Origin: Escherichia coli
Lineage (GTDB): Bacteria > Pseudomonadota > Gammaproteobacteria > Enterobacterales > Enterobacteriaceae
DNA: 64,000 nt
Assembly: GCF_003334405.1 (NCBI RefSeq)
Contig: NZ_QOWM01000011.1
Direction: 5' to 3' (one strand)
Both the position numbers and the translations under genes were made by a program. Positions within the stretch are counted from its first letter, which is position 1, and each line of letters opens with the position of its first letter. Under the pieces are notes generated by a model. It saw nothing but the letters and a program-made list of their open reading frames with translations, was not told the origin of the DNA and ran no database searches. Positions 49,534 to 55,855 of the stretch are shown in pieces.

Positions 49534-50028
49534 ATGAAGACCAACAGGAGTCTGGTCGTCATAGTGTCACTAATTACCGCCACATTACTGCTGACTGCAT
49601 GCGCCCAACCTGAACAATCATCATTAGCTGGCGACTGGTTACTGACCCCTAAAGATAAAACCAGAGGATTAACGGGTAGCATTGCGGTAAATATTGCACC
49701 TTTCCGGTGTAAGACAAATTGCCGTGGTGATAACTTACCTGATAATACCCGCCGCTGGCAGTTGTCAGGCGGGAACGAAAAAGAACTTACTTATCTTCAT
49801 AATATGTCAGCACAAGAAAAGGTCGGTTTAAATCCCGGTTGGCAATGCTACACCTCATTTTTTATGCGGGTTTGCCAGGGCAAGCCCGGCACTCGACCGA
49901 TAGTCAATGAGGATTATGTCAGCGAAAGCGGATTTTTTGGCTCGATGATGCATGTCGGGATTATTGAGTTACGACGCTGCCAGTCAGAAAATTGCCAGCA
50001 AGAATTGAAAGCGATAAATACACATTAA
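49534..50028 (+). CDS. ybfP: Lipoprotein YbfP
   Basis: ORF track 164 aa; lipobox LLLTAC. Confidence 0.88.
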   Translation: MKTNRSLVVIVSLITATLLLTACAQPEQSSLAGDWLLTPKDKTRGLTGSIAVNIAPFRCKTNCRGDNLPDNTRRWQLSGGNEKELTYLHNMSAQEKVGLNPGWQCYTSFFMRVCQGKPGTRPIVNEDYVSESGFFGSMMHVGIIELRRCQSENCQQELKAINTH

Positions 50029-50068
50029 AATAGTGAGTCCGGGAATGAAACCCGGACCTGAACATGTC

Positions 50069-50827
50069 TTATTGCGTGAATGTTTCTTTCATTTGATACT
50101 GCATTTCCCAGAGTTCAGTAAGCGAAATAACTTTTCTTGTTCTTGCTTCTTCACTTTGTACCCATAAGAAAGGGTAGAACGTGAAGGCTTCCGTTGCCGA
50201 TAATTTTATTACGTCTTCTCGCCATTGCTGCCATCGTACATTTTCATAGAAGGTATCTAAATCACCGGATAATGCCCACTGAAGAAACTCAGAATATCCA
50301 ACTTCCAGACTTTCCCAATTCAGCGTATCTGGCGCAAAATAATAAACGCAGCCAGTATCTTCCCCAAGATCGCCACCATTAAGAGCAAAAATTCCCCCTG
50401 CGACATCGTCAGCGATGGGTAAAGCCCGCACGCCTGCGAATTCAGGGCGTTGTGTCCAACTTACTGGATCTCGTGGCAACCGGGGGTGACCAGATCCTGC
50501 TATGCGTAACCAACCATTATCAATCAGCAGACCTCCGGAGCCATAGACAAGCGCACCCATCGGTGATTTTGTTGTCACCTGTAATTGATAAAGTGCGGTT
50601 TCGGCTAAATCTTTATTAACCGGTAAGAGTTCGGTATGGTTTGTGGCGTCTTTTAACCAGTTCTGGATTATTGGCCAGGCTGAATCTTCAGTATTTACTA
50701 ACTGATTCATTTCACGCATCGCTACTTGCTCCTTGTGTGCTACGGTGTCATTTATGATGAGGAATTGTATGGAACATTTTTTAAATATTAAGTTCCTTAT
50801 ATTTGAATAAAAAATGACTTTATCCAT
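50069..50827 (-). CDS. ybfG: YbfG-like DUF2625-family protein, reading frame intact over 252 codons
   Basis: ORF track 252 aa; family assignment from memory. I recall this locus as a pseudogene in K-12, so intactness here should be checked. Confidence 0.65.
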   Translation of the reverse strand: MDKVIFYSNIRNLIFKKCSIQFLIINDTVAHKEQVAMREMNQLVNTEDSAWPIIQNWLKDATNHTELLPVNKDLAETALYQLQVTTKSPMGALVYGSGGLLIDNGWLRIAGSGHPRLPRDPVSWTQRPEFAGVRALPIADDVAGGIFALNGGDLGEDTGCVYYFAPDTLNWESLEVGYSEFLQWALSGDLDTFYENVRWQQWREDVIKLSATEAFTFYPFLWVQSEEARTRKVISLTELWEMQYQMKETFTQ

Positions 50828-50842
50828 ACATTGCCACTTTTT

Positions 50843-50986
50843 TCAAAGCATAAACCGATACCCAATACCGGTTTCAGTAATAAAATGGCGAGGCCGGGCC
50901 GGATCCTGTTCCAGTTTTTGTCGCAGATGCCCCATATAATTACGCAAATAGTTGCTGTGTTCGATCGCGTTTAGACCCTACATCTG
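50843..50986 (-). pseudogene. ybfI: Fragment homologous to the 3' end of kdpE (ybfI-like gene remnant)
   Basis: About 90% nucleotide identity to 55178-55320 (the last ~48 codons of kdpE), e.g. tcaaagcataaaccgata[c/g]ccaataccggtttcagtaat[a/g]aaatggcg; no intact ORF. Confidence 0.65.
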
Positions 50987-55143: not shown

Positions 55144-55177
55144 ATTAATAAAAGGCAGGCTGTATTAAAATTAATAT

Positions 55178-55855
55178 TCAAAGCATAAACCGATAGCCAA
55201 TACCGGTTTCAGTAATGAAATGGCGTGGGCGGGCGGGATCCTGTTCCAGTTTTTGTCGCAGATGTCCCATATAAATACGCAAATAGTGACTGTGTTCGAC
55301 CGCGTTTGGCCCCCACACCTGGTTAAGGAGCTGGCGCTGGGTGAGTACTTTTCCGGCATTGTTGAGCAGCACCGCCAGCAGGCGGAACTCAATTGGTGTG
55401 AGATGCACCTCTTCCTCACCCCGGTGAATCACGCGGGCGGCTAAATCGACGGTAACATCGGAAAATTTTACCAGCGGATCGGGCGCGGTGGTGGCAGAGT
55501 GGCGGCGTAATGCGACGCGCAGACGGGCCTGCAATTCGCCAATGCCAAACGGCTTACTCAGATAATCATCCGCTCCGGCATCCAGCGCGGCGATTTTGTC
55601 GCTCTCTTCGCTGCGTGCGGAAAGCACAATCACCGGCACCGCGCTCCACTGGCGCAGGTCGCGGATAAACTCAATCCCATCACCATCGGGCAGGCCGAGA
55701 TCGAGAATAATCAAATCTGGCTTACGGGTTGCCGCTTCCAGCAAGCCGCGTTGCAGCGTTTCGGCCTCAAAGACGCGCATCCCGTCGCCCTCCAGCGCCG
55801 TGCGCAGAAAGCGACGAATAGCCTGTTCATCTTCAACAATCAGAACGTTTGTCAC
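55178..55855 (-). CDS. kdpE: Response regulator KdpE (OmpR family)
   Basis: ORF track 225 aa; receiver domain ([17 protein letters not shown]) plus winged-helix domain. Confidence 0.95.
   Translation of the reverse strand: MTNVLIVEDEQAIRRFLRTALEGDGMRVFEAETLQRGLLEAATRKPDLIILDLGLPDGDGIEFIRDLRQWSAVPVIVLSARSEESDKIAALDAGADDYLSKPFGIGELQARLRVALRRHSATTAPDPLVKFSDVTVDLAARVIHRGEEEVHLTPIEFRLLAVLLNNAGKVLTQRQLLNQVWGPNAVEHSHYLRIYMGHLRQKLEQDPARPRHFITETGIGYRFML

Follow-up and report, generated by a model that had tools for sequence, protein, structure and literature searches.

Zhang et al. (PMC3113570, PMC3482391) connected the SUKH superfamily with nuclease toxins that belong to polymorphic toxin systems. 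For the immunity protein Tdi1 orphan genes have been described: orphan Tdi genes are about 10 times commoner than the toxin, encode proteins with 61-65% identity to the cognate immunity protein and are equally protective (PMC10470768). Neither Pfam nor NCBIfam assigns a function to the family DUF2625, and a literature search by this family name returned no paper. Its Escherichia coli member is ybfG. Since RefSeq annotates both an intact and an interrupted state of this gene, its status as intact gene or pseudogene is already known from public annotation, and in a published study a K-12 strain with ybfG knocked out served as the neutral 'pseudogene' control.

The window, i.e. the whole stretch of 64,000 nucleotides of E. 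coli DNA that was analysed, contains at 50069..50827 on the minus strand an uninterrupted frame of 252 codons with an ATG start, as given by the ORF listing with translations. An earlier note on this DNA had reported this continuous frame, its membership of DUF2625 and its position convergent with ybfP and alongside a kdpE fragment, and all three statements were confirmed. The Pfam model PF10946 (DUF2625) is covered almost completely, residues 40-238 of the 252-codon frame matching model positions 1-206 of 207 (E = 1.5e-87 to 2.7e-87), and the curated NCBIfam equivalog NF008494 with its 216 positions is matched from 1 to 216 with 512.7 bits (cutoff 278). Substantially longer homologues, named in the earlier note as a possible sign of truncation, were not encountered; full-length members of the family measure 214-229 aa. 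In an alignment of 82 DUF2625 members 19 positions are invariant and a further 38 nearly invariant, and all of them, Trp70 and Gly109 included, are present in the YbfG of the window. The claim of an intact 252-aa product thus stood with respect to intactness and had to be revised with respect to length, the real CDS most likely being the 216 codons that begin at an inner ATG (Table 1).

The interval between pgm and kdpE occurs in at least three layouts across E. coli: pgm-ybfP-ybfG-kdpE'-potE-speF-kdpE in the window and in K-12, pgm-potE-speF-speFL-kdpE in Nissle 1917, and pgm-ybfP-kdpE in isolate KK05-19, where REP-like sequence takes the place of ybfG. The kdpE' relic is identical to the resident kdpE (55177..55321) at 131 of 145 positions (90%) and is best read as the marker of an old rearrangement junction. 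This duplicate of the kdpE 3' end between ybfG and potE, together with the different layouts, suggests that speF-potE may have entered by recombination at the kdpE end. The neighbouring ybfP is also low in G+C (45.5%, GC3 45%). Since it occurs in some strains without ybfG, the two genes were probably not acquired as a single unit. A link to rhsC was considered and rejected, as the window ends before the rhsC locus.

Table 1. Features of the ybfG region, in coordinates of the window
Feature	Position	Strand	Remarks
ybfP lipoprotein gene	49534..50028	+	Convergent neighbour of ybfG; given as context, no link to ybfG implied
G+C-rich hairpin	50036..50058		Between ybfP and ybfG; terminator-like for ybfG (sequence scan)
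ybfG CDS	50069..50719	-	Most likely CDS, 216 codons + stop; intact DUF2625 protein, predicted cytoplasmic SUKH-like fold
Codon 109	50393..50395	-	Gly here, Val in K-12; window 50394 C, K-12 A
Codon 70	50510..50512	-	TGG (Trp) here, TAG (amber) in K-12; window 50511 C, K-12 T
36-codon in-frame 5' extension	50720..50827	-	5' UTR and promoter region, most likely untranslated
Shine-Dalgarno motif AAGGAG	50729..50734	-	9 nt upstream of the inner ATG (50719..50717); read from sequence
Sigma-70-like site TTAATA-16-TACAAT	50791..50764	-	Overlaps the sigma-E-like promoter; sequence scan
Sigma-E-like promoter	50769..50796	-	GGAACTT 50796..50790, 16 nt spacer, TCCAT 50773..50769; read from sequence
kdpE' relic	50842..50986	-	145 nt; last 44 codons + stop of kdpE

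The AlphaFold2 model of YbfG (pLDDT 93.2, pTM 0.90) is a compact soluble domain with the alpha+beta fold of SUKH proteins, and no N-terminal hydrophobic, signal-like segment is apparent on reading the sequence. The structures most similar to it are those of genuine immunity proteins, namely the DUF1851 immunity protein Tdi1 of a Bacteroides T6SS Ntox15 effector (8g0k_D, score 12.8) and the Agrobacterium T6SS immunity protein Atu4351 (6itw_A, 11.3). SUKH proteins come next, with Lin2918 (2icg, 8.8), a Smi1/Knr4 family protein (3d5p, 8.0), YobK of B. subtilis (2prv, 8.0), Knr4 (5j1b, 6.2), the RhsPI immunity protein (8bd1_B, 5.2) and Syd (3ffv, 4.7). This match of the predicted fold places DUF2625 with the SUKH-type immunity proteins. 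At the sequence level the SMI1_KNR4 Pfam model gave sub-threshold matches on the ADDxxGGxF core and hairpin, with E = 0.14 for YbfG and 0.029 for the best of the 82 members. Searching the PDB by sequence with the profile of the family gave no significant match, Foldseek against AFDB50 gave only DUF2625 proteins among the best 50 matches listed and thereby no functional clue, and with the PADLOC defence-system models 0 families were obtained at E <= 1.

The genomic neighbourhoods of about 86 DUF2625 loci were surveyed for partner genes. In Clostridium homopropionicum (locus L045) the DUF2625 gene begins 22 nt after the end of an Rhs protein that has 1,975 aa or more, with RHS repeats and core-end motif. 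The C-terminal tail of this Rhs protein, about 110 aa long, matches DNase_NucA_NucB (PF14040), and orphan Rhs-CT cassettes follow the DUF2625 gene. In further Clostridium arrays DUF2625 is preceded by a full-length Rhs protein with 2,563 aa or more (L100) or by a 302-aa orphan Rhs-CT with PF14040 (L098 and L099), and these arrays also hold Rhs-ribonuclease/Barstar and Tox-REase-7 cassettes. A toxin-domain HMM of 112 aa matched directly upstream of DUF2625 in Paenibacillus dendritiformis (L103, 5671..6009, E 1.8e-52), where the toxin is truncated by IS110; at the same place a C-terminal remnant lies in C. pasteurianum (L101/L102, 6792..6971) and two frameshifted remnants lie on a C. butyricum megaplasmid (L108, 5726..5978). 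None of these remnants had been called as a gene, and each lies beside an intact DUF2625 gene. They look like stages in which the toxin is being lost and its immunity gene preserved, as one would expect on the way to an orphan immunity gene. PF14040 was thus found directly before DUF2625, on the same strand, in four Clostridium species and one Paenibacillus, and on these sequences we regard the Firmicute loci as decisive for the toxin link of the family. As every case with an adjacent toxin comes from a Firmicute, a single ancestral module could underlie them all.

By HMM search, no toxin domain was detected in the window or in the approximately 75 Gram-negative DUF2625 loci, and no toxin gene or remnant adjoins ybfG in the window. 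Clustering of the neighbours of more than 80 loci yielded no partner gene conserved across genera, synteny being confined to single genera, and a Pfam scan of 179 pooled neighbours returned mostly unrelated genes besides a few immunity-type families (SUFU, SMI1_KNR4 twice, Ank twice). The missing toxin fits an orphan status of the gene in E. coli and at the other Gram-negative loci, with which it is compatible and of which it is no proof. The PF14040 domain itself is widespread, with about 50-65% identity across phyla, and occurs in contexts labelled RHS, PT-HINT and 'filamentous haemagglutinin', including a Salmonella VgrG-PAAR-Rhs (T6SS) locus and an enterobacterial CdiA locus. In Salmonella enterica (L104, 6001..7115) an orphan PF14040 cassette downstream of a PAAR-Rhs T6SS effector is paired with DUF6707, and in Enterobacteriaceae RIT711 (L107, 6001..7205) such a cassette downstream of CdiA is paired with an unannotated 171-aa protein that has no Pfam match. 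Both partners are candidate alternative immunity families for the PF14040 domain. With hhalign, DUF6707 showed no similarity to DUF2625, and the 171-aa protein a weak match to its core (E 3e-4, probability 39%). The Salmonella toxin DNA matches E. coli DNA in the Rhs core only, and no toxin was found that E. coli YbfG would meet.

We consider it moderately probable that YbfG acts as an orphan immunity protein of the SUKH/Tdi1-like kind, with NucA/NucB-type DNase toxins carried by Rhs proteins as its targets. We infer that the 216-aa protein, predicted to be cytoplasmic, would bind and neutralise a PF14040 DNase domain, thereby protecting the cell, and that the toxin met by E. coli would come from competitors, at the C-terminal end of Rhs, CdiA or other polymorphic toxins of this sort. 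In Firmicutes DUF2625 would represent the cognate immunity gene directly downstream of the toxin domain; in E. coli and most Gram-negatives the toxin would be gone and the protective gene alone would remain. E. coli would have gained ybfG horizontally, into the variable pgm-kdpE interval, and would transcribe it from its own promoter, which in K-12 would respond to sigma-E overexpression. The gene would be dispensable and often lost, as in K-12, which lost it through the Trp70 amber mutation and also carries Gly109Val. Several observations count against this reading, among them the lack of a toxin at the Gram-negative loci and of a partner gene conserved across genera, and the existence of SUKH-fold proteins that are not immunity proteins. 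Moreover, DUF2625 is conserved with 45-55% identity across phyla, which is unusually high for an immunity protein, an objection that the precedent of the Tdi1 orphans softens (PMC10470768). The Enterobacteriaceae PF14040 toxins are also paired with non-DUF2625 proteins at the two loci examined. In addition, an AlphaFold2 fusion of a cognate Clostridium toxin, a linker and the immunity protein, computed with a block-diagonal alignment, reached a pTM of 0.67; as this value is near our own estimate for an undocked pair (about 0.63, as compared with about 0.83 for a docked one), the fusion model leaves binding unsupported.

In K-12 MG1655 a DUF2625 pseudogene, annotated by RefSeq with an 'internal stop', occupies the same position. 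The window and MG1655 are colinear over 7.2 kb with three differing bases, two of which fall into ybfG, so that 649 of 651 coding bases are identical. DNA identity at ybfG is 99.8% over 1,201 bp, and the identical chromosomal position together with the near-identical DNA identifies the gene as the ortholog of K-12 ybfG. The third and last difference lies inside speF (window 53367, C here, T in K-12). Because Trp70 (Trp106 of the 252-codon frame) is nearly invariant in the 82-sequence alignment and Gly109, part of the ADDxxGG motif, is invariant in the family, K-12 ybfG is judged to bear two damaging changes, Trp70 amber and Gly109Val. The K-12 locus was therefore rightly named a pseudogene in the earlier note, and an intact, identical K-12 gene was not found. 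Its division into the fragments ybfG and ybfH, given in the note as a condition, is due to a single nonsense mutation and to no frameshift.

For allele counting in 5,426 complete E. coli genomes we used 55-nt megablast queries with the SNP at their centre, so that no 28-nt seed word could match without including the variable position. The Trp allele of codon 70 was detected in 1,284 genomes and the amber allele in 365; for codon 109 the Gly allele was present in 1,423 and the Val allele in 355. Sixty of the 365 amber genomes were listed, and these are mostly named K-12 laboratory strains, e.g., MG1655, W3110, DH10B, DH5a, C600, MC4100, J53 and TOP10. A divergent intact allele with 96% identity, from strain S1-IND-02-A, has kept both Trp70 and Gly109. 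The numerical excess of the Trp allele, its presence in the divergent allele and the near-invariance of the residue across the family identify Trp70, on comparative grounds, as the ancestral state. With an intact form that is ancestral and common, the interpretation put forward in the earlier note holds, and so does its proposal that this is the right allele for functional study, given the intact Trp70 and Gly109; the allele is, however, common and already annotated, and no rarity attaches to it.

The ybfG segment was present at a coverage of at least 80% in 1,771 of the 5,426 complete genomes, i.e. in about one third (33%), and in a scan of one genome per species it was absent from the representatives of other Escherichia species. 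The same scan, which covered bacterial and archaeal species, gave no relative closer than about 54% identity outside E. coli, the closest homologues belonging to genera such as Pantoea, Kosakonia and Erwinia. The sole 100% match in the species scan (tblastn, all 216 residues) is a contig of 1,899 bp (JAIJJM010000630.1) in a 'Collinsella sp.' MAG, which is probably E. coli contamination. The GC3 of ybfG is 37%, as against about 58-60% in its neighbours pgm and potE. Based on this low GC3 and the distant homologues outside E. coli, ybfG looks horizontally acquired, and it also looks dispensable. Among 50,697 phage records no YbfG homologue was detected by tblastn, and within the plasmid records matches were restricted to large, mostly non-mobilizable plasmids. 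The gene has been inactivated independently at least three times: in K-12, in strain 200177 by an internal deletion with frameshift, and in strain CFSAN051542 by an IS1 near codon 6, the duplicated 9-bp target being equivalent to 50696..50704 of the window. Between two intact alleles dN/dS is 0.27, calculated from the small sample of 10 synonymous and 10 non-synonymous codon differences, and this suggests that ybfG may be under some constraint.

The motif GGAACTT-16 nt-TCCAT upstream of ybfG, which we take to resemble the -35 and -10 elements of sigma-E promoters, is a candidate promoter of the gene. Transient overexpression of sigma-E in MG1655 raised ybfH-ybfG (b0691-b0690) 3.9- and 25.2-fold, and ybfH is marked in the respective table as found in an earlier study by Rhodius (PMC2731931). 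This induction was seen in K-12 although ybfG is a pseudogene there. In a Shigella study ybfG appears with a ratio of 0.43 in a table of PhoP-regulated genes (PMC5775216).

The sigma-E response would also be expected if YbfG were a SUKH-fold housekeeping or stress protein without a role in toxin immunity, the toxin linkage in Firmicutes being a secondary recruitment. Such a protein could belong to the sigma-E regulon and have a binding partner within the cell, in the way that SecY is bound by Syd, or it could inhibit a nuclease of the cell itself. The majority of DUF2625 genes occur singly, between genes of unrelated kinds (GNATs, methyltransferases, regulators), and the strong conservation with its 19 invariant positions would agree with this as well. 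A general cellular role is, however, less expected of a gene that two thirds of E. coli and the other Escherichia species representatives lack, that has been repeatedly inactivated and whose loss in K-12 has no known consequence, the K-12 knockout even serving as a neutral control. Considering further that immunity proteins head the structural matches and that DUF2625 follows the same toxin domain in each of the five Firmicute species, we rate a housekeeping or stress role as rather unlikely.

It is also conceivable that ybfG no longer has a function in E. coli and, left over from an old horizontal transfer, drifts towards loss, the copy in the window having merely been spared so far. The patchy distribution, the recurrent independent inactivation by nonsense and missense changes, deletion and IS1 insertion, and the absence of a partner toxin would all follow from such a history. 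Against it count the low dN/dS of two alleles with 20 differing codons, in which all family-invariant residues are kept, the retention of the Trp70 frame in 1,284 genomes and that of a good Shine-Dalgarno motif, a promoter and a terminator, as well as inducible transcription. For these reasons we consider drift to loss improbable.

The immunity reading, which we prefer, can be extended to a broadly neutralising orphan immunity protein under sigma-E envelope-stress control, a proposal that we regard as speculative and doubtful at best. If it were true, an envelope-damaging attack would switch on protection against the incoming DNase effector, which would make ybfG an innate immunity gene of a 'danger-sensing' type, one that laboratory K-12 happens to lack.

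The position of the promoter-like elements also bears on the start codon, since a sigma-E-like element inside the 36-codon extension, i.e. downstream of the outer ATG, argues that this ATG is unused. The nearly invariant N-terminal Met of the 82 aligned sequences corresponds to the inner Met (M1), the start annotated by PGAP in K-12 and other strains. No homologue and no curated model reaches into the extension, which has a G+C content of 30.6% as against 44.4% in ybfG. A 252-aa product with a 36-residue N-terminal extension, for which only the frame that is open from 50827 here and in the 96%-identical allele and one UniProt/AFDB entry of 252 aa could be cited, is extremely improbable and was rejected on this start-site, composition and family-alignment evidence, to which are added the lack of a Shine-Dalgarno motif before the outer ATG (bases read by eye), the full-length alignment of NF008494 to the inner Met and the beginning of the Pfam match at residue 40.

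For work on DUF2625 in E. coli we advise taking the allele that encodes 216 aa with Trp70 and Gly109 from a strain other than K-12, because K-12 carries a nonsense mutation in the gene and, in addition, a missense change that affects an invariant position. Knockouts of ybfG in K-12 remain valid as neutral controls, and K-12 itself would be a naturally sensitised prey for the toxins considered here. Taken alone, the distinction between intact gene and pseudogene changes nothing; what is gained is a candidate function of DUF2625 that can be put to the test, namely immunity to Rhs-borne NucA/NucB-type DNase toxins. An intact ybfG combined with probable orphan immunity is a useful, if unsurprising, annotation.

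A comparison with the described systems allows YbfG to be delimited more precisely. K-12 ybfG/ybfH (b0690/b0691) shares the locus between ybfP and potE, the promoter region and the flanks, and differs by TAG at codon 70 and Val109; the window has neither change and encodes the full 216-aa protein. From Tdi1/DUF1851 (8g0k_D; Atu4351, 6itw), which is distinguished by an unusual 'insertion into the toxin core' mechanism, YbfG is separated by a sequence identity of 11-13% and the lack of a DUF1851 Pfam match. The partners differ too, Ntox15/Tde in the case of Tdi1 and, as a candidate, PF14040 of the NucA/NucB type on Rhs proteins in the case of DUF2625, so that YbfG belongs to the Tdi1 family neither by sequence nor by pairing with Ntox15 (Tde). 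The SUKH-1 proteins (Smi1/Knr4; YobK, RhsPI) are shorter, with about 130-160 aa as compared with about 216 aa and extra elements in DUF2625, and DUF2625 obtains no significant E-value with SUKH profiles. Furthermore, some proteins of the SUKH fold, like Syd and Smi1/Knr4, are not immunity proteins. Acquired interbacterial defence clusters differ in arrangement, as E. coli ybfG is a single gene in a chromosomal indel, with no array and no obvious mobile element, and its protection is a prediction. In some genomes, however, DUF2625 is arrayed with the immunity-type genes SUFU, Ank, SMI1_KNR4 and Imm53, and with orphan immunity genes and such clusters ybfG shares its stand-alone, toxin-less occurrence, its apparent horizontal acquisition, its patchy distribution and a predicted protective role.
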